A program made the translations under genes and the position numbers. A stretch of 64,000 nt of DNA, from assembly GCA_963816345.1 (NCBI GenBank), contig CAWFKI010000005.1:2550053-2614052 (forward strand), given 5' to 3'. A model generated the notes under the pieces. The model was not told where the DNA came from and ran no database searches. It was given only the letters and a program-made list of their open reading frames with translations. The stretch is from an uncultured Bacteroidales bacterium (GTDB lineage: Bacteria; Bacteroidota; Bacteroidia; Bacteroidales; VadinHA17). This document shows positions 24,683 to 52,645 of this stretch, piece by piece; within the stretch, counting starts at the first letter, position 1, and each line of letters starts with the position of its first letter.

Positions 24683-25720
24683 ATGTTACAGGAAGATATT
24701 CAGATGAGGGTCTCAGTTGTTTCGGGCAGATTGGAGACGGAGGAGGCTATTGGCTTTATCAAGGAAAAATTTTCAAAGAGGCTTGCGAGGAAGCTTAATC
24801 TGGTCTCCGTCTCAGCCCCCATTGCCGTTCTGGACGGGACAGGCATCAATGATGATCTGAACGGGATCGAGAAACCAGTTAGCTTCTCCATAAAAGGTAT
24901 GAACGGACATAAGGCGTCAGTTGTTCAATCTCTTGCAAAATGGAAGAGGCTTCGCTTGAAGGAATTTGAAATTGAACCCGGGATGGGCATCCTTACTGAT
25001 ATGCGGGCTTTAAGGCCTGATGAGGAACTGAGCCGGATACACTCGGTATATGTGGATCAGTGGGACTGGGAAAAACGCATCTTCCCCGAACAAAGGGTTC
25101 TGAATTATCTGAAGTCAACCGTTGAGAATATCTATGAAGCGATCAGGGCCACTGAAAGGGATCTCTTTGAAGCATATCCGGCGTTCGCTCCGGAATTGCC
25201 TGATAAGATATACTTTATACATTCCGAAGAACTTTTAAAGCAATTTCCGGATCTTACTGTCAAACAGAGGGAAAATGAAGTCGCACGTATTTTTGGTGCG
25301 GTATTTATTATCGGGATCGGGGCAAATCTCAGCAATGGTGAGCCTCATGATGGAAGGGCACCGGATTATGATGACTGGAGCTCATTAAATGAAGAAGGTT
25401 ATTCCGGACTCAATGGTGATATTATCCTGTGGAATCCGGTTCTGAACTCTGCTTTTGAGATCTCTTCCATGGGAATACGTGTAGACAGCAAGGCAATGGA
25501 AAGACAGCTTGAGATAAGGGGATGTTCCGAAAGACGGAATCTTCTTTTTCACAGTATGCTTCTGAATGAACAGCTCCCTGCCAGTATCGGCGGAGGCATC
25601 GGACAATCAAGGCTTTGCATGTTCTTTCTGAAGAAGCTGCATATTGGAGAAGTACAGTCAAGTATCTGGCCGGACGGGCTTCTTCAGCAACATGACCGGA
25701 ATGAACTTAAATTACTTTAA
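24683..25720 (+). CDS. asnA: Aspartate--ammonia ligase (asparagine synthetase A)
   Basis: Colinear with E. coli AsnA: LAKWKR, ALRPDE...HSVYVDQWDWE, APDYDDWS, GLNGDI.LWNPVL...FE.SSMGIRVD, GGGIGQSRL. Confidence 0.93.
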   Translation: MLQEDIQMRVSVVSGRLETEEAIGFIKEKFSKRLARKLNLVSVSAPIAVLDGTGINDDLNGIEKPVSFSIKGMNGHKASVVQSLAKWKRLRLKEFEIEPGMGILTDMRALRPDEELSRIHSVYVDQWDWEKRIFPEQRVLNYLKSTVENIYEAIRATERDLFEAYPAFAPELPDKIYFIHSEELLKQFPDLTVKQRENEVARIFGAVFIIGIGANLSNGEPHDGRAPDYDDWSSLNEEGYSGLNGDIILWNPVLNSAFEISSMGIRVDSKAMERQLEIRGCSERRNLLFHSMLLNEQLPASIGGGIGQSRLCMFFLKKLHIGEVQSSIWPDGLLQQHDRNELKLL

Positions 25721-25774
25721 AGGGTTTATATATTTAAAAAATCTATCTTTTGCTTGTATTTTATAAAAAAATAT

Positions 25775-25782
25775 TACATTTG
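25775..25782 (+). promoter_or_regulatory. Bacteroidetes-type -7 box (TAcaTTTG) for the ilv-leu operon leader
   Basis: TAnnTTTG match ending 21 nt upstream of the leader ATG at 25803. Confidence 0.55.
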
Positions 25783-25802
25783 CATTCTGATTTAAAGAGA
25801 TT

Positions 25803-25865
25803 ATGCAGAAACATACAATAATATATATTATTATCCTCGTACTCCTCATTGCTCTGCGCAAATGA
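25803..25865 (+). CDS. ilv-leu leader peptide MQKHTIIYIIILVLLIALRK (attenuator sensor ORF)
   Basis: 20-codon ORF in which 11 of 20 codons are Ile (6), Leu (4) or Val (1). It sits between the -7 box and an intrinsic terminator directly upstream of ilvD. Confidence 0.7.
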   Translation: MQKHTIIYIIILVLLIALRK

Positions 25866-25899
25866 ACCGGGAATAATATGTAGTACTATAAACTTACAG

Positions 25900-25929
25900 A
25901 AGCTTTCCGGGAGACCGGGAAGCTTTTTT
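25900..25929 (+). terminator. Intrinsic terminator of the ilv-leu attenuator
   Basis: 11-bp stem AAGCTTTCCGG/CCGGGAAGCTT (one G-U), loop GAGA, T6 run, ending 17 nt before the ilvD ATG. CCGGGAA at 25867-25873 can alternatively pair with TTTCCGG at 25904-25910. Confidence 0.75.
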
Positions 25930-25945
25930 AATATGAATTCATAAT

Positions 25946-27772
25946 ATGAAAAATCAGCTCAGAAGTTCAAAGACCACCACCGGGAGGAATATGGCAGGGG
26001 CAAGAAGTCTCTGGCGTGCCAACGGTATGAAGCAGGAACAATTCGGAAAGCCTGTCATTGCAATTGTCAACTCATTTACTCAGTTTGTGCCGGGCCATGC
26101 CCATCTTCACGAGATCGGTCAGCTGGTAAAAAAAGAGATAGAAAAGGCAGGATTTTTTGCTGCTGAATTTAATACAATCGCAATTGATGACGGGATTGCC
26201 ATGGGACATGAAGGGATGCTTTATTCCCTTCCGTCCAGGGAACTGATAGCCGACAGCATTGAATATATGTGCAATGCTCACCTTGCGGATGCCATGATAT
26301 GCATAAGCAACTGCGATAAGATTACTCCCGGAATGCTTATGGCAGCAATGAGGCTGAACATTCCTGCGGTATTTGTATCCGGAGGTCCTATGGAAGCAGG
26401 GTTCCGCAATAATAAATATATCGACCTGATAGATGCCATGGTAGCAGCCGCCGATAATTCGGTAAGCGAAAATGACCTGAGCGAAATTGAAAAATTAGCC
26501 TGTCCAACCTGCGGTTCATGCTCCGGCATGTTCACGGCAAACTCCATGAACTGCCTTAATGAGGCGCTTGGCCTGGCCCTTCCCGGAAACGGAACAATAG
26601 TGGCCACACACGCGAACAGGATAAAGCTGTTTGAAAAAGCTGCCGCATTAATTGCCGATATGGCTGACAGATATTATAATAAAGGTGATGCCTCTGTTCT
26701 TCCCAGATCGATAGCCACAAGGGAGGCGTTTATGAATGCAATGTCGCTCGACATAGCGATGGGAGGATCGACAAATACCGTTCTGCATCTTCTGGCCATC
26801 GCAAATGAAGCCGGAGTTGACTTTACAATGAAGGATATCGATGAGCTCTCCAGGAAAATTCCTAATATCTGCAAGGTGGCTCCAAGTTCACAATATCATG
26901 TCCAGGATGTCAACCGTGCGGGAGGCATTCTTGGAATAATGGGAGAACTGGAACGGGCAAACCTTATTAACAGCAAAGTAGGACGAGTGGATTATGCCAC
27001 TCTCCGTGAAGCTGTCTCCGACTGGGATATCATGGGAGGAAAAGCTGTTCAGGAAGCAACAGAAGTATTCCGGAGCGCGCCTGCCATGGAGAAAAACCTG
27101 GTCATGGGATCGCAGAATACAAGTTATAAAGAGCTTGATACCGACAGGGAAAAAGGGTGTATCAGGTCCGTAACCCACGCATATAATCAGGACGGAGGTC
27201 TTGCAGTGCTGTATGGGAATATCGCCAAAAAAGGATGCATTGTCAAAACTGCAGGTATAGAAGAATCATTGTTTAAATTCTCAGGTGGTGCGGTGATTTT
27301 TGAATCACAGGAAGATGCTGTTGAGGGAATTCTTAACGGTACCGTAAAAGCCGGGGATGTTGTTGTAATTAAATACGAAGGTCCCAAAGGTGGTCCCGGA
27401 ATGCAGGAAATGCTATACCCTACCTCCTATCTGAAGTCAATGGGTCTTGACAAGAAATGTGCCCTTATAACTGACGGACGCTTTTCAGGCGGTACATCAG
27501 GCCTTTCTATCGGTCACGTCTCCCCGGAAGCTGCCTCGGGAGGAGAGCTTGCACTGATCAGAACAGGCGACAGGATTGAAATAGATATTACGGGAAGAAA
27601 GATAAATGTTATGTTATCTGAGGATGAACTTGATTCCAGAAGGGCTGCTGAATCATCCAAAGGGAACAGGGCATACAAACCTGAAAAACGTAACCGTATT
27701 ATCTCCTCTGCACTTAAAGCTTATGCAAAATATGTAAGTTCAGCAGACCTGGGAGCTATAAGGATGATATAG
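25946..27772 (+). CDS. ilvD: Dihydroxy-acid dehydratase
   Basis: 608 aa with IlvD/Edd family motifs throughout ([37 protein letters not shown]). Confidence 0.95.
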
Positions 27773-27840
27773 CACGGGGCACAGGGCACAGAGCACAGGG
27801 CACAGAGCACAGAGCAAAGAGCACAGACTAGAGCATAGAG
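27772..27840. repeat. Tandem heptanucleotide array (GCACAGR)n
   Basis: GCACGGG GCACAGG GCACAGA GCACAGG GCACAGA GCACAGA GCAAAGA GCACAGA followed by a degenerate tail. It starts on the last base of the ilvD stop codon. Confidence 0.9.
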
Positions 27841-27885
27841 ATTACTAAGGGATAAAAAACAGGATATTAAGACAAAAATCGAAAT

Positions 27886-29626
27886 ATGAAGAGTGTAAAG
27901 GAAAAAGAACAGGCAACAGCACAAATTAACGGACTGGAGTGTATTACAGGTGCAGATGCCATAATAAGATGCCTCATTGAAGAGGGAGTTGATACTATAT
28001 TTGGTTATCCCGGCGGAGCTATCATGCCTGTATATGATAAGCTTCTTGATTATGAAGGTCAGATAAAGCATTATCTTACCCGTCACGAGCAGGGAGCAGC
28101 TCATGCAGCGCAGGCTTATGCCATGGTAAGCGGGAAACCGGGGATCTGCTTTGCAACATCAGGCCCGGGTGCTACAAATCTGGTAACAGGGATAGCAAAT
28201 GCGTTTCTCGACTCGGTTCCGGTTGTTTTTATTACAGCCCAGGTAGTATCGGGCCTCATAGGAACAGATGCTTTTCAGGAGACTGATATTATAGGTGTAT
28301 CGATGCCTGTGACAAAATGGAACTGCCAGATCAAGAAGCCACAGGATATACCTGAGACACTTGCAAAAGCTTTTTACATAGCAAAAACAGGCCGCCCCGG
28401 CCCCGTACTAATCGATATTACAAAAGATGCACAGATTGAGAAACTTGATTTCAGGTACTCCAAATGTGTCTCACTTGAGAAGCTATAATCCGAATATCCC
28501 CCTGCATACCAAGGCGATAGAATCGGCAGCAATAATCATCAACCATGCCGAAAGGCCTCTTATCCTTGCAGGACACGGAGTGCTTCTTTCCGGTGCAGAG
28601 AAGGAGCTTAAGGCATTTGCTGAGAAAACAGGCATACCTGTTGCGCTTACCCTCCTCGGGTTGTCTGCATTTCCATCCGACCACCGCCTCTTCGCCGGGA
28701 TGCTTGGCATGCACGGAAATTACGGCCCGAATCTGCTGACCAATCAGGCTGACCTCATAATAGCAATCGGAATGCGTTTTGATGACCGTGTTACGGGAAA
28801 TCTTAAAAAGTATGCAAATAATGCAACGATAATCCATATCGAGATTGATGAAGCCGAGATAAATAAAAATGTTGTGGTCGATGTTGAAATAAATAATGAT
28901 GCAAAGGAGGCTTTAACATATCTGACACGAATTGTGAAGGAGAACTCCTTTGAGAAATGGATCAGGGAATTCAGGATATGCGATAAAATCGAATACGATA
29001 AAGTTATCAAGCCTGAAACGAAACCAGAATCGGGTGAGATTAAGATGGGTGAGGTAATAAGACTGGTCTCCGAACATACAAAAGGAGATGCCATTATTGT
29101 AACGGATGTCGGACAACATCAGATGTATACTGCCCGTTACTATAAATTTAATAAACCAAACACACTTGTCACCTCGGGTGGAATGGGAACAATGGGTTTC
29201 GGCCTTCCTGCCGGGATAGGAGCAAAGATCGGAAGCCCGGAAAAGACTGTAATAGCATTCATAGGAGACGGTGGTTTCCAGATGACAATGCAGGAACTGG
29301 GAACAATATTGCAGTATGGCATTGCTCTGAAGATCATCATACTCAATAACAATTTCCTTGGAATGGTGCGCCAGTGGCAGGACATGTTTTTCGATAAGCG
29401 CTATGCCTCAACAGAACTGGTAAATCCGGATTTCGTTATGATAGCCAAAGCTTTCAGTATACCTTCAAAAAAAGTTACTCTGAGAGAAGACCTTAAAGAT
29501 TCCCTTATTGAGATGATAGACGCCGAGGGACCCTATCTTCTCGAAATAAAGGTGGAGAAGCAGGGAAATGTATTCCCAATGGTTGAACCGGGAAAATCAG
29601 TCTCGGAAATAAGATTGACTTATTAA
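27886..29626 (+). pseudogene. ilvB: Acetolactate synthase large subunit with an interrupted reading frame (authentic or sequencing artefact)
   Basis: ORF 27886-28488 (TPP-binding N-domain) ends ...[16 protein letters not shown] 28427-29626 in the +1 frame carries ...LRSYNPNIP...[10 protein letters not shown] and the rest of the enzyme. Removing one nt near 28477 would give a continuous ...[16 protein letters not shown]... protein. Confidence 0.85.
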
Positions 29627-29682
29627 CCCGCATTGCTGACAGCATGAGGGCAGAAAATCTTTAATATCAAAATTATATTACG

Positions 29683-30249
29683 ATGAAACAGGAATATACA
29701 ATATCGCTTTTCACTGAGGACCATATCGGTATCCTTGGACAGATAACAATCATACTTACCAGGAGGCAGATAAATATCGACAGCTTCAGCGCCTCCGAAT
29801 CAGCCGTAAAAGGGGTTCATCTTCTCACAATCGTTGTAAAAACAACAAGCGAGATGATCCAGAAAGTTGCAAGGCAGATGGAAAAGCTTGTAGATGTACT
29901 GAAAGTATTTGTGCATACATCCGACCAGATCATCTACCAGGAGATTGCACTGTTCAAGGTGACAACCAAGGGGCTGATGTCGGGAAACATCATTGACAAT
30001 ATAGTCAGGACTCATCATGCACGTATCCTTGAGGTATCACCCGAATACATTGTAATTGAAAAGACCGGTCACAGGACTGAAATTGCCGAATTGCTCAGCC
30101 AGCTCGAGCCGCACGGAGTGCTGCAGTTCGCCAAATCAGGAAGAATAGCGATAACAAAACAGGTTAAAGAGCTTAATTCATACCTTAAAGAGATGGATGC
30201 CGCTACCAGGCTAAAGCCTGAATCGCTGGACCTGCCACACAAAAATTAA
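29683..30249 (+). CDS. ilvN: Acetolactate synthase small (regulatory, ACT-domain) subunit
   Basis: 188 aa with an N-terminal ACT domain (ISLFTEDHIGILGQITIILTRRQINIDSF). Located between ilvB and ilvC. Confidence 0.88.
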   Translation: MKQEYTISLFTEDHIGILGQITIILTRRQINIDSFSASESAVKGVHLLTIVVKTTSEMIQKVARQMEKLVDVLKVFVHTSDQIIYQEIALFKVTTKGLMSGNIIDNIVRTHHARILEVSPEYIVIEKTGHRTEIAELLSQLEPHGVLQFAKSGRIAITKQVKELNSYLKEMDAATRLKPESLDLPHKN

Positions 30250-30326
30250 CTGCCGGGAAAACCAGTGTAAACTAATGACTATAAGAAAAATACCAGTATT
30301 AATCAAATATTTAATATTTAAAGATC

Positions 30327-31376
30327 ATGGCAAAAATTGATTTTGGCGGAGTAGTTGAGAATGTAGTTACAAGAGATGAGTTTCCACTCTCAAAAGCCCG
30401 TGAAGTGCTTAAGAATGAAATAGTAGCTGTAATTGGTTATGGCGTACAGGGACCTGCCCAGTCTCTTAATATGAGAGATAATGGAATAAATGTAATCATA
30501 GGACAGGCTCCGGAGTTTAAGGCCGACTGGGACAAAGCTGTAGCAGATGGTTTTGTACCGGGGAAAACTCTTTTCCCTGTTGAGGAAGCAGTAAAAAAAG
30601 GCACAATCATTCAGTACCTTGTTTCAGACGCAGCTCAGCGTATTCTCTGGCCAAAAGTCAAGGAATGCCTTAAGAAGGGCGATGCACTCTATTTTTCCCA
30701 TGGTTTTTCAATAACTTATAAAGAGCATACAGGGGTTATTCCTCCTCCTTATGTGGATGTTATACTCTGTGCGCCGAAAGGTTCCGGGACCAGTGTCCGC
30801 AGGAATTTCCTGGCAGGTGCAGGAATTAACTCCAGCTTCTCAGTCTTTCAGGATTATACCGGAAGAGCTGAAGAACGCACCATTGCACTTGGTATAGCAA
30901 TTGGTTCAGGTTACCTCTTCCCGACAACTTTTGAACTTGAGGTTTTCAGCGATCTGACGGGTGAACGGGGAGTTCTGATGGGTGCCCTTGCCGGCATTAT
31001 GGATGCACAGTACAAGGTACTTCGCGAGAATGGTCACAGCCCTTCGGAAGCATTTAACGAAACTGTTGAGGAGCTCACCCAGAGCCTGATACGGCTCGTC
31101 GATGAGAACGGCATGGACTGGATGTATTCCAACTGCAGCGCTACTGCCCAGCGTGGAGCCCTCGACTGGCGTCCGAAATTCATGGCTGCAACACTTCCCG
31201 TTTTCAAGGAGCTCTATAGCAGGGTCAAATCCGGTGAGGAATGTGTCAGAGTGCTCAAATCCACCGGCGCTCCCAACTATAAAGAGATGCTCGACGGAGA
31301 ACTCAGGGAACTTGGCGATTCTGAAATGTGGAGAGCCGGAGCTGCTGTCAGGAAACTCAGGCCGCTGAAAAAATAA
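30327..31376 (+). CDS. ilvC: Ketol-acid reductoisomerase (class I)
   Basis: 349 aa with a Rossmann motif VIGYGVQGPAQSLNMRDNG and a C-terminal knotted-domain region. Confidence 0.93.
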   Translation: MAKIDFGGVVENVVTRDEFPLSKAREVLKNEIVAVIGYGVQGPAQSLNMRDNGINVIIGQAPEFKADWDKAVADGFVPGKTLFPVEEAVKKGTIIQYLVSDAAQRILWPKVKECLKKGDALYFSHGFSITYKEHTGVIPPPYVDVILCAPKGSGTSVRRNFLAGAGINSSFSVFQDYTGRAEERTIALGIAIGSGYLFPTTFELEVFSDLTGERGVLMGALAGIMDAQYKVLRENGHSPSEAFNETVEELTQSLIRLVDENGMDWMYSNCSATAQRGALDWRPKFMAATLPVFKELYSRVKSGEECVRVLKSTGAPNYKEMLDGELRELGDSEMWRAGAAVRKLRPLKK

Positions 31377-31398
31377 ACTGTTATAAACAACTGATAAA

Positions 31399-32892
31399 AT
31401 GAATAATAAGATCATAATTTTTGATACTACCCTCAGGGACGGGGAACAGGTGCCGGGATGCCAGTTGAATACAATTGAAAAGATCGAAGTGGCCCAGGCC
31501 CTTGAAGCGCTTGGAGTGGACGTCATCGAGGCAGGTTTTCCCATTTCAAGTCCGGGAGATTTCAAATCAGTGGTTGAAATTTCCAAAGCCATTACGAATC
31601 CTGTGATCTGTGCCCTTACCCGTGCAATTAAAAAAGATATTGAAGTGGCCGCCGAGGCCCTTCAGTATGCAAAAAGGAAAAGGATACATACCGGGATCGG
31701 CACTTCTCCATTCCATATACAATATAAGATAAAAACAACTCCTGAGGAGATATTGAAAAGAGCTGCCGATGCAGTCAAATACGCCAGGAAATTTGTGGAT
31801 GATGTGGAGTTCTATGCAGAGGATGCAGGCAGAAGCGAAAACGAGTATCTCGCAAGGGTTATCGAAGCTGTTATCAAGGCAGGCGCCACTGTTGTAAATA
31901 TTCCCGATACTACCGGCTATTGCCTTCCGGAGGAGTACGGAGCAAAAATAAAGTATCTTAAGGACAATGTGCCCAATATCGACAAGGCAATAATTTCAAC
32001 CCATTGCCATAACGATCTTGGAATGGCTACCGCCAATACAATGATGGGTGTCATAAACGGCGCCAGACAGGTTGAGGTGACAATAAACGGTATAGGAGAG
32101 AGAGCAGGGAACACCTCCCTGGAAGAGATAGCGATGATCATCAAGAGCCATCACAACCTTAATTTAAAGACTGACATCAATACCAAGCTGATCTACAGCA
32201 CCAGCAGGCTTGTATCAACACTGATGAGCATGCCTGTTCAGGCCAATAAAGCCATTGTCGGAAGAAATGCATTTGCGCACTCATCCGGTATTCACCAGGA
32301 CGGCGTACTGAAAAACAGGGAGAACTATGAGATAATTGATCCTGTAGAGGTGGGCGTTAAGGAGTCATCAATCATACTTACAGCACGTAGCGGAAGAGCC
32401 GCTCTTAATCACAGGCTTGAATTGCTCGGTTTCAAATTCGGTAAAGAAGAGATAGACGATATTTATCACCGTTTCCTGCTTCTTGCCGATAAAAAGAAAG
32501 ATATCAACGATGAAGACATGCGGATCCTGGCAGGTGAGGTATTCCAGGGGGAGAACTCCCTGAAGCTCGATCTGCTTCAGGTATCCTGCGGAAAGTCACT
32601 TATCCCTGTGGCCACGGTAGGTGTGAAAATCAACGGGGAACTTCATTTTTCAACTGCTTCCGGCAACGGGCCCATCGATGCGGCATTCACTGCCGTCAGG
32701 CATCTGATAAGCAAGACCGTTCATCTTGAGGAATTCCTCATCCAGGCGATAACAAAGGGAAGCGATGACCTTGGGAAGGTTCATATCCAGGTTGAGCACG
32801 AAGGAAAGACGTACTACGGGTTCTCTGCCAATACCGATATCATTACTGCTTCTGTTGAAGCCTTTATTGATGCACTGGCGAAGATTGGCTGA
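31399..32892 (+). CDS. leuA: 2-isopropylmalate synthase
   Basis: 497 aa. Motifs: [24 protein letters not shown], and a C-terminal LeuA dimerisation/regulatory domain (GNGPIDA). Confidence 0.92.
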
Positions 32893-44440: not shown

Positions 44441-44459
44441 TTTTAAATAATGATATAAA

Positions 44460-45053: not shown

Positions 45054-45153
45054 GCGAAGTCTCCGCTAAGCGAAGTCCCGCTAAGCGAAGTCTCCAGACT
45101 TCGCTTTATCTATTTAATCCTGCCCCGCTAAGCGAAGTCTCCAGACTTCGCTT
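45047..45153. repeat. CCGCTAAGCGAAGTCT direct repeats ending in two copies of the palindrome AAGCGAAGTCTCCAGACTTCGCTT
   Basis: Three tandem 15-16-nt units start inside the last hisIE codons; the gene's TAA is the TAA of the first unit. Perfect palindromes lie at 45083-45106 and 45130-45153. They probably also act as the his operon terminator hairpins. Confidence 0.85.
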
Positions 45154-45233: not shown

Positions 45234-45241
45234 TACTTTTG
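45234..45241 (+). promoter_or_regulatory. Bacteroidetes-type -7 box (TActTTTG) for the aromatic operon leader
   Basis: TAnnTTTG match ending 21 nt upstream of the leader ATG at 45262. Confidence 0.55.
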
Positions 45242-45261: not shown

Positions 45262-45327
45262 ATGAATATTGTGTACAAATATTTTATCTCCTTTTTCTAC
45301 TTCTATTTTTACTTTAAAAACAGATAA
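45262..45327 (+). CDS. Aromatic (Phe/Tyr) leader peptide MNIVYKYFISFFYFYFYFKNR
   Basis: 21-codon ORF in which 6 codons are Phe and 5 are Tyr. It is followed by an intrinsic terminator 13 nt before pheA. Confidence 0.7.
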   Translation: MNIVYKYFISFFYFYFYFKNR

Positions 45328-45367
45328 GGGGATTTTTGTATACAGATATAATTAATTTATATGAAAC

Positions 45368-45400
45368 AAGGGTCCCGCAAAGGGGCCCTTATTTGTTTTT
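45368..45400 (+). terminator. Intrinsic terminator of the Phe/Tyr attenuator
   Basis: 9-bp stem AAGGGTCCC/GGGGCCCTT (one G-U), loop GCAAA, followed by ATTTGTTTTT. Confidence 0.7.
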
Positions 45401-45412
45401 AAAACATTTAAG

Positions 45413-46243
45413 ATGAAGGTATCGATACAGGGAGAAGCTGGAAGTTTTCATGAAGTTGCGGCAAGGCAGTACTTCAGCTATGATGAGGTTGAAATTGTTC
45501 CATGCCCGACATTTGATCTCACTCTGAACACACTCAAAGCCGGAGAATCAGATTTTGCCGTTATGGCAATAGAGAATGCCCGCTCGGGAAGCATTCTTTA
45601 TAACTACACACTCATAAGGGAATCAGGGCTGAAGATCCTCGGAGAACACAATCTCAGGATAAAGCAGAACCTTATGGCGCTTCCCGGACAGCTTATCACC
45701 GATATCAGGGAGATAAGGTCCCACCCGATAGCCCTGGCCCAGTGCATGACATTTCTGAATCAGTTTCCCGGCATGACCCTTATTGAAAGCGACGATACGG
45801 CAGGAAGTGCAAAACAGATCAGCGAGAATCAGCTGAAAGGAGTGGCAGCCATAGCATCCGTTGCATCTGCTGAAATATATGGTCTTGATATACTTGCCGA
45901 AGGCATTGAGACATACAAACAAAATTATACCAGGTTTCACATAATCGGAAGTGAAGATAAGGGGAATACGAAAGGGAACAAGGTATCCATCTGTTTTTCA
46001 ACGGGTCATAAGCCCGGATCACTGGCAAAAGTTCTGGTCAAGCTTGCGGAACTGGAGATAAACCTCTCTAAGATTCAATCGGTTCCAAGGCTCAACGGTG
46101 AGTGGGAATATATGTTCTATCTCGACCTGGAGCTGAACAAGAATACAAAATCAGAGGTAATAAAAAGGGTACTGAATAACCACACAAGCAACCTTGAGAT
46201 ACTTGGTGTATATTTTAAAGGAGACATGCTATATGAAAGTTAA
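45413..46243 (+). CDS. pheA: Prephenate dehydratase (PDT + ACT domains)
   Basis: 276 aa. Motifs: IQGEAGSFHE, an ESDDTAGSA variant of the TRF-region, and a C-terminal ACT domain (KVSICFSTGHKPGSLAKVL). Confidence 0.9.
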   Translation: MKVSIQGEAGSFHEVAARQYFSYDEVEIVPCPTFDLTLNTLKAGESDFAVMAIENARSGSILYNYTLIRESGLKILGEHNLRIKQNLMALPGQLITDIREIRSHPIALAQCMTFLNQFPGMTLIESDDTAGSAKQISENQLKGVAAIASVASAEIYGLDILAEGIETYKQNYTRFHIIGSEDKGNTKGNKVSICFSTGHKPGSLAKVLVKLAELEINLSKIQSVPRLNGEWEYMFYLDLELNKNTKSEVIKRVLNNHTSNLEILGVYFKGDMLYES

Positions 46244-47420
46244 ACCGGCTGACCGTACAGGCAATGTACAGGAATACTATTTTTCGCAAAAACTTGCCCA
46301 GATAGACAGGATGCGGAAAGAAGGAGCTGACGTCATTAATCTGGGAATCGGCAGCCCCGACCAGGCTCCATCGGAAAGCACCATCGCGGCCCTGACTGCT
46401 TATGCAGGAAAACCGACATCACATGGCTATCAGAGTTATACAGGAGTATATGCCCTCAGAAAGGCATTTGCTGAGTGGTATAAGAAATACTTTCATGTTG
46501 ATCTTAACCCCGAGAATGAGATACTACCTTTAATGGGCAGTAAGGAGGGAATAATGCATGTCAGCATGGCGTTTGTAAATCCGGGCGATGAGGTGCTGAT
46601 ACCCGATCCCGGATATCCCACCTACTCATCTGTTACAAATCTTGTCGGGGGTATTCCGAGGAAATACGACCTGACGGAGGAGAATGGCTGGCTTCCCGAT
46701 CTCGAAGCCCTTGAAAACAGCGACCTGAGCAGGGTCAAGGTGATGTGGGTAAACTATCCCAACATGCCTACCGGGACCAAAGGATCAGTGCAGCTCTTCG
46801 AAAAGCTTGTATCATTTTCAATGAAACATGGAATACTACTTTGCAATGACAATCCTTACAGCTTCATTTTAAATAAGGATTATCACAGTATTCTTCAGGT
46901 TGATGGCGCCATGGAAACAGCCCTGGAGATGAATTCGCTTAGTAAATCACAGAATATGGCAGGCTGGCGCATAGGAATGGTGGCAGGCCACAGAGAGTAT
47001 ATAAAGGAGGTGCTGAAAGTAAAAAGCAATATGGACTCAGGCATGTTCCTGCCGATGCAGATGGCTGCTGTTGAAGCGCTTAACAACCCTGACTCATGGT
47101 ATGACCAGGTAAATGAAGTATATATTAAACGGAGGAAGAGAGTTGAAGAAATAATGGACCTGCTTAAATGCAGGTATGACAAAAGCCAGGCCGGATTGTT
47201 TGTCTGGGGGCGAATACCGGATAATATCAGGAGCTGCGAGGATTTCACTTCGGAAATACTTGAAAAATCACATGTATTTATCACACCAGGGTTTATCTTT
47301 GGGAAAAATGGCGAAAGATATATCCGCATCTCACTCTGCGCTACAGAGGAAAGACTGACGGAGGCGCGGGAGAGGATTATATCAATAGATTCCCCTCCCT
47401 GGAGGGGGGGTGGGTTCTAG
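46233..47420 (+). CDS. Class I/II PLP-dependent aminotransferase (probable aromatic/prephenate aminotransferase)
   Basis: Start at ATG 46233 (MKVKPADR), overlapping the pheA 3' end. Motifs: NPNNPTG-like region and SLSKSQNMAGWRIG (PLP lysine). The last roughly 9 codons (SPPWRGGGF*) are encoded by a copy of the intergenic repeat. Confidence 0.85.
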   Translation: MKVKPADRTGNVQEYYFSQKLAQIDRMRKEGADVINLGIGSPDQAPSESTIAALTAYAGKPTSHGYQSYTGVYALRKAFAEWYKKYFHVDLNPENEILPLMGSKEGIMHVSMAFVNPGDEVLIPDPGYPTYSSVTNLVGGIPRKYDLTEENGWLPDLEALENSDLSRVKVMWVNYPNMPTGTKGSVQLFEKLVSFSMKHGILLCNDNPYSFILNKDYHSILQVDGAMETALEMNSLSKSQNMAGWRIGMVAGHREYIKEVLKVKSNMDSGMFLPMQMAAVEALNNPDSWYDQVNEVYIKRRKRVEEIMDLLKCRYDKSQAGLFVWGRIPDNIRSCEDFTSEILEKSHVFITPGFIFGKNGERYIRISLCATEERLTEARERIISIDSPPWRGGGF

Positions 47421-47741
47421 GAAGAAGCACAGGGCTCAGGGCACGGGGCTCAGGCATTGCCAGCCGTAGCTTTCTTCGACCTCCGTAGCTTTAGCGGAGG
47501 AGGTAGCGAAGGCTGGGCACAGAGCAGTAAGCAGTACTTCAGCAGGATCCCCTCCTGGGAGGGGGCAGGGGTGGGTTCCAGGAAGGGGCACAGGGCACAG
47601 AGCACAGAGCACAGGCATTGCCAGCTGTAGCTTTCTTCGACCTCCGTAGCTTTAGCGGAGGAGGTAGCGGAGGCTGGGCACAGAGCAGTAAGCAGTACTT
47701 CAGCAGGATCCCCTCCTGGGAGGGGCAGGGGTGGGTTTAAA
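47391..47741. repeat. Tandem duplication of a roughly 160-bp composite unit (partial + 2 full copies)
   Basis: Units at about 47421-47581 and 47582-47741 are near-identical. Each contains (GCACAGG)4, a nested hairpin region CCAGCC...CCTCCG TAGCTTTAG CGGAGG...GGCTGG, GCAGTAAGCAGTACTTCAGC, and CCCCTCCTGGGAGGGG(G)CAGGGGTGGGTT. The terminal motif also occurs at 47391-47420. Confidence 0.9.
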
Positions 47742-47782
47742 GTAAGAAGAATAGTTATTAAATAAGATTACATATAAAAAAC

Positions 47783-48628
47783 ATGACAATTGCAGTTATT
47801 GGAGTAGGGCTCATAGGCGGATCGCTTGTAGTGGATCTCCGCAAGAGGAAATTTGCAGACAGGATTATCGGAGTGGACAGTAATATCCATCACCAGAATA
47901 TTGCTCTACTCTGCGGACTTGTGGATGAGAATGACACCCTGGAAAACGCTGTTGAAAAAAGCGATCTTATCATTCTTTCAACTCCTGTGAATACAAACTC
48001 TGCGATGTTGCCCGGGATACTCGATATGATTGCCGGCACCTCGAAAGTGGTGACTGATATGGGCTCCACAAAAGCAAGCATTGCCAGGGCTTCGGTTAAC
48101 CATCCTGCAAGAGGTCGCTATGTTGCAGTCCACCCTATGGCCGGAACAGAATATTCCGGACCTCTGGCTGCCATTGGAAAACTTTTTGATTATAAGAACG
48201 CCATTATATGTGACCGGGAGCTCAGCGATCCTGATGCCCTTGAACTTGTCGAGAAAATGCTCGATACTCTTAATATGCATAAAGTGTACATGAGCTCAAG
48301 CGACCACGATGTTCATGTGGCCTATATTTCACATATTTCCCACATTACATCTTTCTCACTCGCCCTCTGTGTTCTGGATAAGGAGAATGAAGAAGGGAAT
48401 ATCCTTACACTTGCCGGTGGTGGTTTCGAAAGTACCGTACGGCTTGCAAAGAGCAACGGAGATACCTGGGCGCCTATCTTCGTGGAAAACTCCGAATTCA
48501 TCCTCGAAGTAATGGATACATATATAGATAAAATGAATTCCTTCAGAAAGATGATAACCGATAAGGATGTCAGCGGTTTGAAATCCCTTATGGAAGAGGC
48601 AAATAAGATAAGGAAGATATTGAATTAA
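47783..48628 (+). CDS. tyrA: Prephenate dehydrogenase
   Basis: 281 aa. Rossmann motif IAVIGVGLIGGS plus HPMAG and SHDVHVAYISHISH motifs. Confidence 0.88.
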   Translation: MTIAVIGVGLIGGSLVVDLRKRKFADRIIGVDSNIHHQNIALLCGLVDENDTLENAVEKSDLIILSTPVNTNSAMLPGILDMIAGTSKVVTDMGSTKASIARASVNHPARGRYVAVHPMAGTEYSGPLAAIGKLFDYKNAIICDRELSDPDALELVEKMLDTLNMHKVYMSSSDHDVHVAYISHISHITSFSLALCVLDKENEEGNILTLAGGGFESTVRLAKSNGDTWAPIFVENSEFILEVMDTYIDKMNSFRKMITDKDVSGLKSLMEEANKIRKILN

Positions 48629-48643
48629 TAATAAATATTAATT

Positions 48644-49759
48644 ATGGAAGTCAAACTTGAGAATCCACTCATAAAAGACTGGAGAGGTTATAAAGGGCGG
48701 CCTTTTTTAATTTCAGGTCCGTGCAGTGCAGAAACAGAGGAGCAGGTAATGGAGACCGCCAGGAAACTGGCTGAGATAAAAGAGGTCAGTGTGTTTCGCT
48801 CCGGGATATGGAAACCAAGGACCCGCCCCAACTCCTTCGAAGGTGTCGGAAGCGAGGGACTGAAATGGCTTCGCAGGGTCAAACAGGAAACAGGGTTGCT
48901 CGTCGGAACAGAGGTAGCCAATGAAAAGCATGTGTATGAAGCGCTTAAATATGGTATCGACCTGCTGTGGATCGGCGCCAGGACCTCCGTTAATCCGTTT
49001 ACAGTACAGGAGATCTCCGATGCCCTTCAGGGCGTGGACGTTATGGTACTGGTGAAAAATCCGATCAACCCTGATATCGAATTATGGATAGGCGCCATAG
49101 AGCGTGTTGCCAGGGCAGGGATAACAAGGATAGGAGCTATTCACCGCGGATTCTCCTCTTACGAAAAAACCCTGTACAGGAACCAGCCTAACTGGCAGCT
49201 GCCTATTGAACTCCGCAGGCGTATCCCCGACCTTCCCATAATCTGCGACCCGAGTCATATTGCCGGTGCAAGGCAATATCTTCATGAGATCTCCCAGAAA
49301 GCCATGGATCTTAACTTCGACGGATTAATGCTTGAGTCGCATATAAATCCTGCAAAAGCCCTGAGCGATGCCGCTCAACAGATTACACCAAACGATCTGA
49401 AAGAGCTTCTGAGCAGGCTTATCCTCCGGAGTCCGGACACTTCCGATCCGAAATTACTGGATGTCCTTGGGGAACTGAGGCAGCAGATCGATGTCTATGA
49501 TGATCATCTTCTTGATCTGATGGAAAAAAGAATGAAGGTGGCCGAAACGATCGGACTCTATAAAAAGGAAAATAATATCACTATATTGCAGAGCCTGCGA
49601 TGGGATGAAATTATAAGCAAAGCAATAATCAAAGGCAAGGCAAAAGGCCTCAGTTCTGAACTTATAGATACCATTTTCAAAGCTATACACCAGGAATCAA
49701 TAAACCATCAGATCAGAGTCATGAATAATGGAGTGAAAGATCCTGAAAAGAAAAAATAA
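48644..49759 (+). CDS. Bifunctional type I-beta DAHP synthase / chorismate mutase (type II, C-terminal)
   Basis: 371 aa. The DAHPS/KDSA-family barrel (GPCS.E, KPRT.P.SFEG, DPSH) is followed by an AroQ-type CM domain (LRQQIDVYDDHLLDLMEKRMKVAETIGLYK). Confidence 0.88.
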   Translation: MEVKLENPLIKDWRGYKGRPFLISGPCSAETEEQVMETARKLAEIKEVSVFRSGIWKPRTRPNSFEGVGSEGLKWLRRVKQETGLLVGTEVANEKHVYEALKYGIDLLWIGARTSVNPFTVQEISDALQGVDVMVLVKNPINPDIELWIGAIERVARAGITRIGAIHRGFSSYEKTLYRNQPNWQLPIELRRRIPDLPIICDPSHIAGARQYLHEISQKAMDLNFDGLMLESHINPAKALSDAAQQITPNDLKELLSRLILRSPDTSDPKLLDVLGELRQQIDVYDDHLLDLMEKRMKVAETIGLYKKENNITILQSLRWDEIISKAIIKGKAKGLSSELIDTIFKAIHQESINHQIRVMNNGVKDPEKKK

Positions 49760-49775
49760 ATTAATCAGCGAATCA

Positions 49776-50990
49776 ATGGAAAGATGTGTAGTACCCTCCG
49801 GACTTAAGGGCCGGATTAAAGCCCCGGCATCAAAGAGTATGACACAGCGAGCCATAGCCGCTGCCCTTCTGGCTGAGGGACAAAGCACTATATACAATCC
49901 CTCCTATTGTGACGATTCGCTGGCTGCAATGAGTGTAGCGTGCGGACTTGGTGCAAGAGTTGAGCCAATGCCGGATGAAATGAAAATTTTTGGCTCAGCC
50001 ATTCTTAAGGAGCCAAAACTGAACTGCGGGGAATCCGGCCTGGCGATAAGGATGTTCTCCCCTATTGCAGCCCTCTACCCGGCTGAGATTACAATGGTTG
50101 GAGCTAACTCTCTTAAAAAAAGGCCCATGGATATGATCGGAAAGGCCCTCGTTCAGCTGGGAGTTAAATTCACAAGCAGCGGAGGTTTTCTTCCGCTTAC
50201 AATCCAGGGACCACTTAAAGGCGGATCATGCGAAATTGACGGCTCTGTGAGCAGCCAGCTGCTGACGGGTCTGCTGATGGCATTGCCTCTGGCACAGGAA
50301 GACTCTGAGATAAAGGTTAAGAACCTGAAGAGCAAGCCTTATATAGACATGACCATCCAGCTGCTCAGGTCGTTCGGGATCTCTGTCAACAGTACAGGTT
50401 ACGACCTGTTTAAAATCCCGGGGAATCAGAAATATAAAGCTCAGGAATACACTGTGGAAAGTGACTGGAGCGGCGGAGCATTCCTGCTTATTGCCGGCGC
50501 CATAAACGGACATTTAGATATAACCGGTCTGCGGAGAGACAGCAGACAGAGCGATAGATCAGTATTGAACGCCCTGGAAAAAGCAGGCGCATCAGTAAAT
50601 ATAAGGGAAGATGGCATTGGGATCTCCGTATCTGAATTAAAAGCCTTTGAATTTGATGCGACCGAATCACCTGACCTCTTCCCTCCTCTTGTGGCACTGG
50701 CGGCCTATTGCAGGGGCACCTCGACAATAAAGGGAGTATCAAGGCTTATTTACAAGGAGAGCGACAGGGCAGCATCACTTCGGGAAGAGTTCGCTAAGAT
50801 GAATATCGGAATAGAGGTCGACGGCGATATCATGAAAGTGACAGGCGGTCGGCCCGGAGGAGCACATGTGGAATCGCACGACGACCATCGTATTGCAATG
50901 GCAGTTGCAGTAGCTGCGCTCGGAGCATCAGGCAATGTCTGTATCAGGGATTCTCAATGTGTTGCAAAATCTTATCCCGGGATTTTTTGA
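49776..50990 (+). CDS. aroA: 3-phosphoshikimate 1-carboxyvinyltransferase (EPSP synthase), C-terminus truncated by a frame change in a T6 run
   Basis: 404 aa with EPSPS motifs (KSMTQRA, SSQLLTGLLMA, DHRIAMA). The ORF ends ...KSYPGIF* at the T6 run 50983-50988. The +1 frame continues DDLRSLGATVIE* to 51027, which is the normal EPSPS ending. Confidence 0.9.
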   Translation: MERCVVPSGLKGRIKAPASKSMTQRAIAAALLAEGQSTIYNPSYCDDSLAAMSVACGLGARVEPMPDEMKIFGSAILKEPKLNCGESGLAIRMFSPIAALYPAEITMVGANSLKKRPMDMIGKALVQLGVKFTSSGGFLPLTIQGPLKGGSCEIDGSVSSQLLTGLLMALPLAQEDSEIKVKNLKSKPYIDMTIQLLRSFGISVNSTGYDLFKIPGNQKYKAQEYTVESDWSGGAFLLIAGAINGHLDITGLRRDSRQSDRSVLNALEKAGASVNIREDGIGISVSELKAFEFDATESPDLFPPLVALAAYCRGTSTIKGVSRLIYKESDRAASLREEFAKMNIGIEVDGDIMKVTGGRPGGAHVESHDDHRIAMAVAVAALGASGNVCIRDSQCVAKSYPGIF

Positions 50991-51073
50991 TGATTTGCGA
51001 TCGCTGGGAGCAACAGTAATCGAGTGAAAAAAGTAAAAAAGTTGATTTTGTGATGATAATTTAAAAATTTAAT

Positions 51074-51081
51074 TATTTTTG
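51074..51081 (+). promoter_or_regulatory. Bacteroidetes-type -7 box (TAttTTTG) for the trp leader / trpB2
   Basis: TAnnTTTG match ending 32 nt upstream of the leader ATG at 51113. Confidence 0.5.
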
Positions 51082-51112
51082 TGTAACGGCTGCAATCAGC
51101 AGAGTAATAATT

Positions 51113-51175
51113 ATGAAAGTAAAAATGTTTAATATCTGGTCCTGGCGCAACTTAAGCGATTATGCTGTGAAATAA
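51113..51175 (+). CDS. Trp leader peptide MKVKMFNIWSWRNLSDYAVK
   Basis: 20-codon ORF with two TGG codons two positions apart (51137-51139 and 51143-51145). Its 3' end is complementary to part of the downstream terminator. Confidence 0.65.
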   Translation: MKVKMFNIWSWRNLSDYAVK

Positions 51176-51209
51176 GCCGTTATATAACATTTAAATGATA
51201 TTTATCTAT

Positions 51210-51239
51210 AAAGGCACGCTTTTCACAGCGTGCCTTTTT
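51210..51239 (+). terminator. Intrinsic terminator of the Trp attenuator
   Basis: 11-bp perfect stem AAAGGCACGCT/AGCGTGCCTTT, loop TTTCAC, T run. GCTGTGAAA at 51164-51172 (end of the leader ORF) is a perfect complement of TTTCACAGC at 51221-51229, giving an antiterminator. Confidence 0.8.
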
Positions 51240-51277
51240 AATTTTGCATTTTCAATCAACCATCAAAACTAAATAAA

Positions 51278-52645
51278 ATGGAAAAACTCAGAAAAATCAT
51301 CCTAAGTGAAAAAGAAATGCCAACGCACTGGTATAATATTATGGCAGATATGCCAAACAAGCCATTGCCTCCGTTACATCCCGGAACAAAAAAGCCTGTA
51401 GGTCCTGAGGATCTTGCAGCTGTTTTCCCCATGGAACTGATCAAACAGGAGGTATCAACAGAAAGATATATCGAGATACCTGATGAGGTCCTTTCTCTTT
51501 ATCATACCTATCGTCCGTCACCGCTCTTCAGGGCTCTGGGTCTCGAGAAGGCTATTGGTACAAAAAGCAAAATATACTACAAGTATGAGGGAGGCAACTA
51601 TTCCGGTTCGCATAAAGCCAATACTGCCATTCCCCAGGCCTATTACAACAAGAAGGAGGGAGTACGCAGGATCACCACTGAGACCGGCGCCGGGCAGTGG
51701 GGAAGTGCGATGAGCTTTGCCTGTAACCATTTCGGTCTCGAACTGCTGGTCTTCATGGTAAGGGTCAGCTACGAACAGAAGCCTGGCCGTAAGCTTCTTA
51801 TGAATGCCTATAATGCAAAGGTGGTTCCATCACCCAGCTCAATGACCGAGGCCGGCAGAAAAGTACTTGAAATGTTTCCTGATTCCCCGGGCAGCCTCGG
51901 GATCGCAATCTCTGAAGCGATGGAGGTGGCAGTTCAGGATCCCTATACCAAATACTCACTCGGAAGCGTTCTCAATCATGTTATCCTGCATCAGACCATT
52001 ATCGGACAGGAAGCCCTTATACAGATGGGAAAGACAGATGATTATCCGGATGTGGTAATCGGTTGTTTCGGTGGCGGTTCCAACTTCTCCGGAATAGCAT
52101 TTCCGTTTCTGAGGGAAAATCTGGTCAATGGTAAGAAGACAAGGCTTCTGACAGTTGAACCAGCTTCATGCCCTAAGCTTACAAAAGGAAAATTCATGTA
52201 TGACTTTGGTGATTCTGCAGGAATGACCCCTCTTCTCCCGATGTACACCCTGGGTCATAATTTCATCCCTGCAAAGATCCATGCAGGCGGCCTTCGCTAT
52301 CATGGCGCCGGTGTTCTGGTAAGCCAGCTTCTGAAGGACGGATTCATCGAGGCCAGGGCCAAGATGCAGAGGGAATGTTTTGAAGCCGGAGTGCTTTTTG
52401 CAAGAACCGAAGGGATCCTGCCGGCACCCGAATCTACATACGCTATTGCTGCAGCTCTTGATGAAGCAAGGACAGCCGATCTCGAGGGAGTATCAAAAAC
52501 AATTCTCTTTAACCTGAGCGGACACGGTCATTTTGATATCTCGGCTTATGAGAAATATTTTGAGGGAAATCTGCCCGACCATGAGATGACAACCGCAGAG
52601 GTCGAGGAGGCTATCTCAAAAATAGATCTGCCGGTATTGATGTAA
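51278..52645 (+). CDS. trpB: TrpB2-type (long, stand-alone) tryptophan synthase beta-like PLP enzyme
   Basis: 455 aa. The N-terminal extension EMPTHWYNIMADMPNKPLPPLHP is typical of TrpB2. Motifs: GSHKANTA (PLP lysine), TETGAGQWGSA, GGGSNF. Confidence 0.88.
   Translation: MEKLRKIILSEKEMPTHWYNIMADMPNKPLPPLHPGTKKPVGPEDLAAVFPMELIKQEVSTERYIEIPDEVLSLYHTYRPSPLFRALGLEKAIGTKSKIYYKYEGGNYSGSHKANTAIPQAYYNKKEGVRRITTETGAGQWGSAMSFACNHFGLELLVFMVRVSYEQKPGRKLLMNAYNAKVVPSPSSMTEAGRKVLEMFPDSPGSLGIAISEAMEVAVQDPYTKYSLGSVLNHVILHQTIIGQEALIQMGKTDDYPDVVIGCFGGGSNFSGIAFPFLRENLVNGKKTRLLTVEPASCPKLTKGKFMYDFGDSAGMTPLLPMYTLGHNFIPAKIHAGGLRYHGAGVLVSQLLKDGFIEARAKMQRECFEAGVLFARTEGILPAPESTYAIAAALDEARTADLEGVSKTILFNLSGHGHFDISAYEKYFEGNLPDHEMTTAEVEEAISKIDLPVLM

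Follow-up and report, generated by a model that had tools for sequence, protein, structure and literature searches.

Four putative leader-peptide attenuators in an amino acid biosynthesis gene cluster of an uncultured Bacteroidales bacterium, and a possible second stage of control at hisG

In a 64,000-nucleotide stretch of DNA from an uncultured Bacteroidales bacterium (contig CAWFKI010000005.1; the whole stretch is called the window below), 25 co-directional genes occupy the plus strand between positions 24683 and 52645, as judged from the listing of open reading frames (ORFs) and from identities assigned by NCBIfam profile search. They comprise asnA, an ilv/leu operon, a his operon, an aromatic operon and trpB2, and all of these except asnA are preceded by a short ORF enriched in codons that match the product of the genes downstream. 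The locus thus raises the question whether these ORFs are leader peptides of attenuators. Leader-peptide attenuation needs tight coupling between transcription and translation, and to our knowledge nearly all detailed studies of it come from Proteobacteria, where Shine-Dalgarno pairing is used. The answer that we favor, with a probability of roughly 0.82, is that the cluster consists of four independently promoted units, each under a classical ribosome-mediated transcription attenuator, and of asnA as an unregulated neighbor. The attenuator interpretation, which had been proposed in an earlier note on the same DNA, is supported by conserved ORFs, conserved terminators, alternative pairings and ribosome-position geometry.

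All four units have the same layout: a TAnnTTTG box, a gap, an ATG-started ORF of 19-21 codons, an intrinsic terminator and then the first gene (Table 1). The uniform architecture claimed in the earlier note was thus confirmed, whereas the claimed gap of 19-32 nt had to be corrected; between the end of the box and the ATG there are 20, 18, 20 and 31 nt in the ilv/leu, his, aromatic and trpB2 units, respectively. The cognate bias amounts to 12 Ile, Leu or Val residues out of 20, four His out of 19 (three of them consecutive), 11 Phe or Tyr out of 21, and two Trp within three codons. Each terminator consists of a hairpin (-17 to -19.5 kcal/mol) and a T-run, the first gene starts 12-42 nt further downstream, and 80-102 nt separate the leader stop from the gene start. 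In all four leaders region 2, the segment that can pair with terminator sequences, begins within the interval from 14 nt upstream to 2 nt downstream of the last base of the stop codon. The -7 element of Bacteroidota, TAnnTTTG, is present and conserved at the leader units. A scan for sigma-70 consensus promoters was set aside as not meaningful for this phylum.

On the two strands of the 64-kb window 887 ATG-started mini-ORFs of 10-40 codons were counted. A box 10-48 nt upstream was found for 19 of them, and a box together with a terminator (-10 kcal/mol or stronger, within 140 nt) for four. These four are exactly the cognate leaders, in agreement with the earlier argument that chance ORFs are unlikely. 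Other mini-ORFs with biased composition do occur in the window (six flagged for His, ten for Trp and three for Phe/Tyr), and none of them has both box and terminator. In related genomes the substitutions within the leaders keep the amino acid class (CAU/CAC, UUU/UUC/UAU/UAC, invariant UGG), which is a signature of selection on decoding.

The his leader was compared most widely. A hisIE scan with one genome per GTDB species returned 80 Bacteroidota loci, the closest relatives being uncultured Bacteroidales metagenome-assembled genomes (MAGs) with 75-81% identity. A His-run mini-ORF with the consensus M..F.QLHHHHFHTC.QA.. was found upstream of hisG in 59/59 loci with enough upstream DNA, at a distance of about 70-215 nt (mostly 95-145). 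These loci span Bacteroidales, Flavobacteriales, Sphingobacteriales, Chitinophagales and Balneolaceae. The window leader belongs to this Bacteroidota hisG leader family: it aligns with 39 others over shared blocks, namely the His run ending in C.QA, the segment CUCAGGCG and the terminator AAACCCGUYUGAG..., upstream of hisG. The antiterminator is formed by CUCAGGCG and the terminator 5' arm CGUCUGAG; in the 40 sequences (alignment A2) 95.6% of the positions are paired, C-G to U-A and G-C to A-U exchanges occur, and no shuffle matched the observed number of double changes. The C.QA tail of the peptide is conserved because it is encoded by this antiterminator strand. An AU-rich inner extension of the antiterminator (37972-37978 with 37992-37998) is tentative; it was seen in the window and in Bacteroidales, and was not robust across the phylum (median z -1.25).

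An ilvD scan of metagenomes gave 80 loci, and in most of those with the order ilvD-ilvB-ilvN-ilvC a mini-ORF with a run of Ile, Leu and Val codons lies 75-150 nt upstream. Human-gut Bacteroides are among the carriers (e.g. MLHTSINLAVLHIIRVVVVPSRA). All three helices of the ilv leader are conserved in close relatives (alignment A4), where the region 2 duplex, -10.5 kcal/mol in the window, is 98% paired. In about 15 distinct classes of terminator sequence a 7-12-nt segment near the leader stop complements the 5' arm of its own terminator, as in GAGAAAGG/CCUUUCUC, GGACUGGAA/UUCCAGUCC, GCGUGAAAUCC/GGAUUUCACGC and, in the window, CCGGGAA/UUUCCGG. The mean duplex energy was -14.9 kcal/mol with the own partner and -10.9 kcal/mol with partners taken from other loci. 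This cross-partner comparison was uninformative for the his, aromatic and trp leaders because their terminators are too alike between loci, and their antiterminators were judged by alignment-based pair counts instead. In the four closest ilvD relatives the Ile/Leu/Val leader starts with GTG, e.g. (V)KISLIHIIVLVLIIAHRT (L083:207-385, L084:3824-4003, L086:3822-4003 and L103:1395-1572); scans limited to ATG therefore miss some leaders.

The aromatic and trpB2 leaders were followed in 12 Bacteroidales MAG species which share the his - aro - trpB2 gene order. The aromatic leader (MNIVYKYF.S.FYFYFYFKNR) is kept in 12/12 of these syntenic loci. Its leader hairpin consists of helices that are 94% and 79% paired, with three covarying pairs (13 sequences, alignment A3), and the 3' arm AAGGGGAUUUUUGUAUACAG overlaps the leader stop codon. 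The antiterminator GGGAUUUUUGU x ACAAGGGUCCC, the latter being the 5' arm of the terminator, has -15.2 kcal/mol, and 92% of the alignment cells are paired. The ..IWSWRSS.. leader of trpB2 was likewise present in 12/12 syntenic loci, with invariant UGG codons. In the 13 aligned sequences (A1) CGCAGC, which follows the second UGG, pairs with GCUGUG (97% paired), and the antiterminator GCUGUGAA x UUCACAGC is 97% paired and nearly invariant. The invariance includes the terminator loop, which is itself unusual. The conservation of a Trp-codon attenuator upstream of trpB2 in 12 species suggests that tryptophan limitation induces TrpB2, as would fit a role in indole salvage. Such an attenuator is regulatory evidence that this poorly understood TrpB paralog is wanted when tryptophan is limiting. 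In the window no trpE or trpA gene accompanies the stand-alone trpB2.

In the mechanism that we infer from the sequence, transcription would start a few bases past the TAnnTTTG box and the leader ORF, which lacks a Shine-Dalgarno sequence, would begin about 12-25 nt from the 5' end of the RNA; the leaders would be translated and the genes of each unit co-transcribed. With the cognate amino acid in plentiful supply, the ribosome would reach the stop codon and cover region 2, the terminator hairpin would form, and transcription would end at the U-tract. If the charged cognate tRNA is scarce, the ribosome would stall on the Ile/Leu/Val, His, Phe/Tyr or Trp codons and free region 2 from region 1, region 2 would pair with the terminator 5' arm (in the trp leader with the loop and the 3' arm), and the operon would be transcribed. 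Constrained folds, scored before the terminator 3' arm is made, agree with this geometry: in the ilv, his and aromatic leaders a ribosome stalled at the regulatory codons leaves 8-11 nt of the terminator 5' arm in upstream pairings, and a ribosome on the stop codon 1-4 nt.

Several observations weigh against this interpretation. In most models the terminator is favored at equilibrium even with a stalled ribosome, hence the switch would have to work kinetically, as it does in E. coli. In folds without any ribosome the terminator 5' arm can still pair upstream, so that super-attenuation is not demonstrated. The aromatic and trp antiterminators are conserved in sequence without compensatory changes, in 13 fairly close sequences, and the window itself carries a single mismatch in the trp helix between regions 1 and 2. 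The transcription start sites are assumed from the positions of the boxes. Finally, if the frameshift in ilvB (see below) is real, the ilv/leu operon is defective in this genome.

The same features could be read in other ways. If the mini-ORFs were chance products of AT-rich spacers and the hairpins ordinary terminators or stabilizers, any regulation would be exerted by proteins at the promoters. Peptides rich in Ile, Leu and Val or in Phe and Tyr do arise easily from T-rich sequence, and the window holds other biased mini-ORFs, as described above. However, those lack the combination of box and terminator, the four leader ORFs have kept their frame, length and amino acid class from species to phylum, and the terminators sit between the promoter boxes and the genes which they would silence. 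We give this explanation almost no credence. It is very unlikely, too, that the sensing is done not by a translating ribosome but by a metabolite riboswitch, a T-box-like tRNA sensor or an RNA-binding protein, and that the ORFs are incidental. Conserved alternative RNA structures alone would fit a riboswitch or a protein-binding leader equally well, and part of the conservation of the his peptide (C.QA) is explained by RNA pairing rather than by peptide function, but the sole systematic difference among the four leaders is the enriched codons, which match the product of each operon, and codon substitutions keep the amino acid class. Moreover, Rfam gave 0 matches on the whole window at gathering threshold, and with permissive E-values no family, T-box and riboswitches included, reached threshold on any single leader (scores against gathering thresholds: His_leader 27.4/49, Trp_leader 18.3/41, Phe_leader 22.1/55).

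An extremely unlikely alternative, in our view, is that the leader ORFs act mainly on translation, through ribosome delivery or re-initiation, or encode functional small hydrophobic or aromatic peptides. The ilv peptide looks like a transmembrane helix, and leader genes near structural genes have been proposed to boost translation, Bacteroidetes included (PMC4833913). That proposal concerns distances of 10-14 nt, whereas here a strong terminator intervenes in the spacing between leader stop and gene, and the ilv peptides are conserved in composition rather than position. The four leader peptides matched none of the Pfam and NCBIfam profiles (His_leader, Leader_Trp, IlvB_leader and others) at E<=10; the lone peptide match at this cutoff was a 13-bit chance hit to an unrelated small protein. 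Because the leaders lie outside Rfam, Pfam and NCBIfam, they are unannotated in thousands of genomes and MAGs.

The his leader contains, in addition to the attenuator, a segment 6-25 nt downstream of the terminator (strand 5, CCUGCCGGGCCUGUUCAGAC) which is nearly fully complementary to the terminator region 37999-38027. The duplex (helix 3:5) has -29.9 kcal/mol. Helix 3:5 was significant (z < -3 against dinucleotide shuffles) in 48/57 his leaders and in 0/23 ilv leaders, which served as controls and lack such post-terminator complementarity. The outer 11 bp are 91% paired in alignment A2, seven of the 11 pairs show compensatory changes, and G-U pairs are numerous, as expected if selection acts on the RNA and not on the DNA. 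Since strand 5 is transcribed after the U-tract, it can have no influence on termination. In 52/53 loci 12-19 nt (median 14) separate its 3' end from the downstream hisG AUG, and its distance from the terminator varies between 2 and 69 nt.

Strand 5 is also complementary to the start of hisG. The complementary sequences are GAUUUACUCAA with AUGAGUAAAUUA in Flavobacteria and GGUUUGCUCAG with AUGAGUGAACU in Bacteroidales, and in 41/53 loci the best duplex (helix 5:6) begins exactly at the A of the AUG. In an alignment of 44 sequences from -45 to +24 around the hisG ATG (A5), helix 5:6 spans the AUG and the first three codons and is 86% paired; five of its ten pairs show double changes (20 cells), a value reached by 0/500 shuffles. 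The pairing is specific for the register, as only 24-40% of the cells remain paired when the register is slid. Locus L016 shows three-way covariation, with GUCUGAAUAAA in the terminator, UUUAUUCAGAU in strand 5 and AUGAAUAAA in hisG, where codon 2 is AAU and not AGU, and in L009 and L046 an AGC codon is matched by a G in strand 5. In minimum free energy (MFE) folds from the terminator to hisG +48, the terminator hairpin coexists with a masked start (at least 8 of 13 nt paired) in 39/57 loci, and strand 5 on the terminator region is a nearly iso-energetic alternative in some loci. In the window the MFE is -38.9 kcal/mol, and strand 5 pairs with hisG +4..+14 and +35..+43 beside the terminator hairpin.

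These pairings and their covariation suggest a two-stage attenuator in the his leader of Bacteroidota, present in several orders, in which strand 5 would remember the choice between terminator and antiterminator. If the terminator hairpin has folded, strand 5 would pair with the start codon and first codons of hisG and block initiation on RNA that arises by leaky read-through, so that read-through transcripts made under histidine sufficiency would be poorly translated. If the antiterminator has formed, strand 5 would capture the terminator region and leave the hisG AUG free. The order of folding and the effect on translation are inferred, and we rate the two-stage reading as possible, at somewhat less than even odds. 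It is at a disadvantage in the window itself, where the masking is in a shifted register (+4..+43, not the AUG itself), and further because the sequences compared are phylogenetically related and the N-terminus of hisG is also constrained as protein. The post-terminator helices could instead shield the untranslated spacer from Rho or RNases or provide an RNase III site, the complementarity to hisG being a by-product of a terminator loop that resembles the conserved N-terminal codons. The great stability and conservation of helix 3:5 by itself, the protein constraint on hisG codons 1-4 and the deviating register in the window would fit such a role. On the other hand, without selection there would be no reason for a terminator loop to resemble the hisG start, the covariation in L016 and the AGC/G match in L009 and L046 speak for a switch, and it is the spacing from strand 5 to the AUG that is fixed, while the distance to the terminator is not. 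On balance we rate such another role of the helices, too, at less than even odds.

The 5' part of strand 5 (CCGGC/CCCGG) also complements hisG codons 11-14, which encode a conserved KKGRL motif (GGCCGGCUGAG); the sites are at 38105-38116 in the window and at hisG +29..+42 in L005 and L006. This complementarity could extend the masking helix or be a coincidence. It was also observed that the last stable structure ends 12-17 nt before the AUG in the ilv (25929-25946), aromatic (45400-45413) and, through strand 5, his (38055-38073) leaders; the spacing may reflect a preferred geometry for initiation without Shine-Dalgarno pairing.

The window leaders resemble the enterobacterial trpL, hisL, pheL and ilvL/ivbL/leuL systems (RF00513, RF00514, RF01859): an ORF with cognate codons is combined with three mutually exclusive helices, the position of the ribosome sets the outcome, and the same amino acid pathways are controlled. 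In contrast to the enterobacterial leaders, with which no sequence homology was detectable, those of the window have Bacteroidota -7 boxes and no Shine-Dalgarno sequence. Further differences are that Phe and Tyr codons occur together in the aromatic leader, which serves a joint pheA-tyrA operon, that the Trp leader precedes a stand-alone trpB2, and that the his leader has three consecutive His codons (4-6 in relatives) and the extra post-terminator strand. Attenuators in several phyla, also outside Proteobacteria, have reportedly been predicted in comparative work by Vitreschak et al. in 2004 and Lopatovskaya et al. in 2010, which could overlap parts of the present findings.

The set of four leaders is not as novel as the earlier note had implied. 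A transcriptomic study of Flavobacterium psychrophilum, from the same phylum, found 'strong clues' for leader-peptide attenuation at amino acid operons (Guerin et al. 2021, PMC9723704), and reported the same four leader types together with expression data: ilvE MRKFNIIPSIIIAIVIITTAKGML, trpE MNTFLNNTWWWNNLRQTS, pheA MNTNNTFYSNNSFYFYWNIGRDCYMVI and hisG MSLNQLHHHHFHICSQAKC (supplement, SI D9, Table S7). Those leaders lie in mapped 5' transcripts, with transcript ends and condition-dependent read-through observed by experiment, and they are co-expressed, with the highest expression in minimal medium (PMC9723704). For the homologous or analogous leaders of the window these expression data are indirect support. 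The four pathways are the same as in the window. The hisG leader (THC0290_N_0824, MSLNQLHHHHFHICSQAKC; RNA ..CAUCAUCAUCAUUUUCAUAUUUGCUCUCAGGCG..AAAACCCGUUUGAGUACAUCAAACGGG) has the sequence blocks listed above and is clearly homologous to the his family described here; its annotated 129-nt 5' transcript ends at the terminator, and strand 5 is not described there. The other leaders differ. The branched-chain amino acid leader precedes ilvD in the window and ilvE in F. psychrophilum, the Trp leader trpB2 (W-S-W) instead of trpE (WWW), and the aromatic leader peptides are unrelated in sequence; moreover, the four units are contiguous in the window. For Bacteroides thetaiotaomicron a transcriptome paper mentions small ORFs 'reminiscent of leader peptides', and nothing beyond. 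The Bacteroid-trp RNA motif (RF01692; Weinberg et al. 2010, PMC2864571) is a peptide leader with Trp codons at tryptophan biosynthesis genes. Like the trpB2 leader it is a Bacteroidota Trp-codon leader, but it is tied to trpE-type operons, and its model did not match the trpB2 leader even at E<=10 in a search of 251 nt. A parallel to the logic proposed for the his leader is the Bacillus subtilis trp leader under TRAP, where, according to a passage in PMC11602163 that cites Du and Babitzke 1998, attenuation is combined, in read-through RNA, with a long-distance refolding by which the Shine-Dalgarno sequence of trpE becomes inaccessible. In both cases one leader would control termination and then the initiation region of the first gene. 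In the TRAP system the sensor is a protein and the Shine-Dalgarno sequence is masked, whereas in the his leader the predicted sensor is the ribosome and the AUG and first codons would be masked, in a phylum without Shine-Dalgarno pairing.

Attenuation of this kind is thus already documented in the phylum, and the window leaders are well-conserved, unannotated further examples. No paper linking a trpB2 of this type to a leader was found in the searchable literature, and, as far as that literature shows, there is no description of the strand-5 helices. What appears to be new is the W-S-W leader of trpB2, the Bacteroidales family of aromatic leaders, the contiguity of the four units and the his strand-5 helices. 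The collected leaders (59 his, 12 aromatic, 12 trpB2 and about 45 ilv) indicate that attenuation is widespread and well conserved in Bacteroidota. They are ORFs with short untranslated regions and no Shine-Dalgarno sequence. Their value is that of a clean comparative data set. The gene cluster as such holds modest interest, and the lead that we find most interesting is that the his leader of Bacteroidota may combine control of transcription with control of translation; its extra helices, if functional, would mean that a bacterium without Shine-Dalgarno pairing couples the attenuation decision to the accessibility of a start codon.

Table 1. Positions of genes, leader elements and other features in the window
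Feature	Position	Strand	Remarks
asnA (aspartate-ammonia ligase)	24683..25720	+	NCBIfam TIGR00669, 390.7 bits; separate unit
TATATTTG box 5' of asnA	24657..24664	+	no leader ORF, no attenuator
ilvD, ilvB, ilvN, ilvC, leuA, leuC, leuD, cimA-like, leuB	25946..37705	+	NCBIfam
ilv/leu -7 box TACATTTG	25775..25782	+	TA..TTTG at same place in 7 close relatives
ilv/leu leader ORF MQKHTIIYIIILVLLIALRK	25803..25865	+	12/20 residues Ile/Leu/Val
ilv region 1, Ile codons AUAUUAUUAUCC	25825..25836	+	pairs with 25869-25880; MFE fold; 86% of cells paired in 8 relatives
ilv region 2, antiterminator strand CCGGGAA	25867..25873	+	2-8 nt past stop; pairs with 25904-25910
ilv terminator	25898..25929	+	13-bp stem, GAGA loop, T-run; -19.5 kcal/mol; 94% paired in A4
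hisG, hisD, hisC, hisB (bifunctional), hisH, hisA, hisF, hisIE	38073..45053	+	NCBIfam
his -7 box TATCTTTG	37886..37893	+	in relatives about 19-26 nt upstream of leader ATG
his leader ORF MNHITSHHHFSDACLQARR	37912..37971	+	
his region 1 (His codons)	37928..37939	+	pairs with 37970-37980; MFE fold
his antiterminator strand UUCAGGCG	37955..37962	+	codons 15-17; pairs with 38004-38011
his terminator, strands 3 and 4 and T-run	37999..38030	+	-17.7 kcal/mol; 95% paired in 40 sequences (A2)
his strand 5	38036..38055	+	complements terminator region and hisG start
hisG start region, strand 6	38073..38116	+	predicted partner of strand 5 once terminator hairpin has folded
Terminator-like palindrome 3' of hisIE	45083..45106	+	dispersed-repeat copy; probable end of his operon
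pheA (prephenate dehydratase), aminotransferase aat	45413..47420	+	NCBIfam; true start of aat ATG 46240
Aromatic -7 box TACTTTTG	45234..45241	+	TAC.TTTG invariant, fixed distance from ATG, 13 sequences
Aromatic leader ORF MNIVYKYFISFFYFYFYFKNR	45262..45327	+	11 Phe/Tyr
aro region 1, leader-hairpin 5' arm	45269..45293	+	Phe/Tyr codon run in loop
aro region 2	45326..45345	+	overlaps stop codon; 45329-45339 pairs with terminator 5' arm 45366-45376
aro terminator	45364..45400	+	-18.2 kcal/mol; 88% paired, 3 covarying pairs
aat-tyrA spacer, 362 nt	47421..47782	+	holds 161-bp tandem duplication; no box, no terminator
tyrA (prephenate dehydrogenase), DAHP synthase/chorismate mutase (aroG/CM), aroA (EPSP synthase)	47783..50990	+	NCBIfam
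trpB2 -7 box TATTTTTG	51074..51081	+	
trpB2 leader ORF MKVKMFNIWSWRNLSDYAVK	51113..51175	+	UGG UCC UGG at 51137-51145
trp region 1, CGCAAC	51146..51151	+	directly past second Trp codon
trp region 2 GCUGUGAA	51164..51171	+	last leader codons; pairs with 51222-51229 (terminator loop and 3' arm)
trp terminator	51210..51239	+	-17.0 kcal/mol; 98.6% paired, 5 covarying pairs
trpB2 (TrpB-like pyridoxal phosphate enzyme)	51278..52645	+	NCBIfam NF009057, 703.5 bits

The 'supercluster' of the earlier note holds as co-directional contiguity; in terms of transcription it falls into four or five separate units, and its order is conserved in one Bacteroidales lineage only. Among the 12 species with the his - aro - trpB2 order, cimA-leuB is directly upstream in nine. 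The leu-his-aro-trpB2 order is therefore a lineage trait of some uncultured Bacteroidales and not unique to this genome. By contrast, asnA adjoined ilvD in none of the 80 loci of the ilvD scan, and it is an unregulated neighbor outside the four attenuated units. A fifth leader was sought upstream of asnA and in the 362-nt gap between aat and tyrA, and none was found. This insertion is missing in relatives, where the aat-tyrA spacer is 42-176 nt long.

The identities of the genes were as named before (the cimA-like gene is a citramalate-synthase-like leuA paralog), with the reservations that asnA adjacency is not conserved, that the long spacer lies inside the aromatic unit and that ilvB is split. 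The ATGA overlaps claimed at leuD/cimA, hisC/hisB, hisB/hisH and hisH/hisA are all present in the sequence, and further overlaps were found at pheA/aat (ATGA, 46240-46243) and hisG/hisD (TGATG). The ilvB gene consists of two overlapping ORFs (27886-28488 and 28427-29626), which match profile positions 2-176 and 174-553, with a single-base frameshift near 28455-28490. It is either an assembly error or a pseudogene that would disable the first committed step of the operon. A GH2 beta-galactosidase-like gene on the minus strand (21823-24484) is likewise broken into two parts, 23909-24484 and 21823-23931; the occurrence of two frameshifts within 7 kb is suggestive of the indel errors typical of long-read MAG assemblies.

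Several repeats were noted in and around the cluster. The 161-bp unit of the aat-tyrA spacer is present in two tandem copies, 92% identical (47407-47728), and carries a GGGGCAGGGGTGGGTT motif that recurs near 52810. The palindrome GCGAAGTCTCCAGACTTCGC has six copies (45085-45104, 45132-45151, 52856-52875, 52919-52938, 56480-56499 and 59873-59892), all intergenic, where none is expected by chance. Some copies precede T-runs and probably terminate operons, downstream of hisIE and in the interval that separates trpB2 from the convergent gene. Degenerate short tandem repeats, CCTTTGTG(TT).., occupy 37750-37825 between leuB and the his promoter. The cluster is flanked by a SusC/SusD-type polysaccharide-utilization locus and by transporters; the former lies upstream, on the minus strand (8223-16862), with an AraC-family regulator at 17008-17919. 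The sign of the GC skew flips near 24 kb and again near 54 kb, tracking gene orientation.

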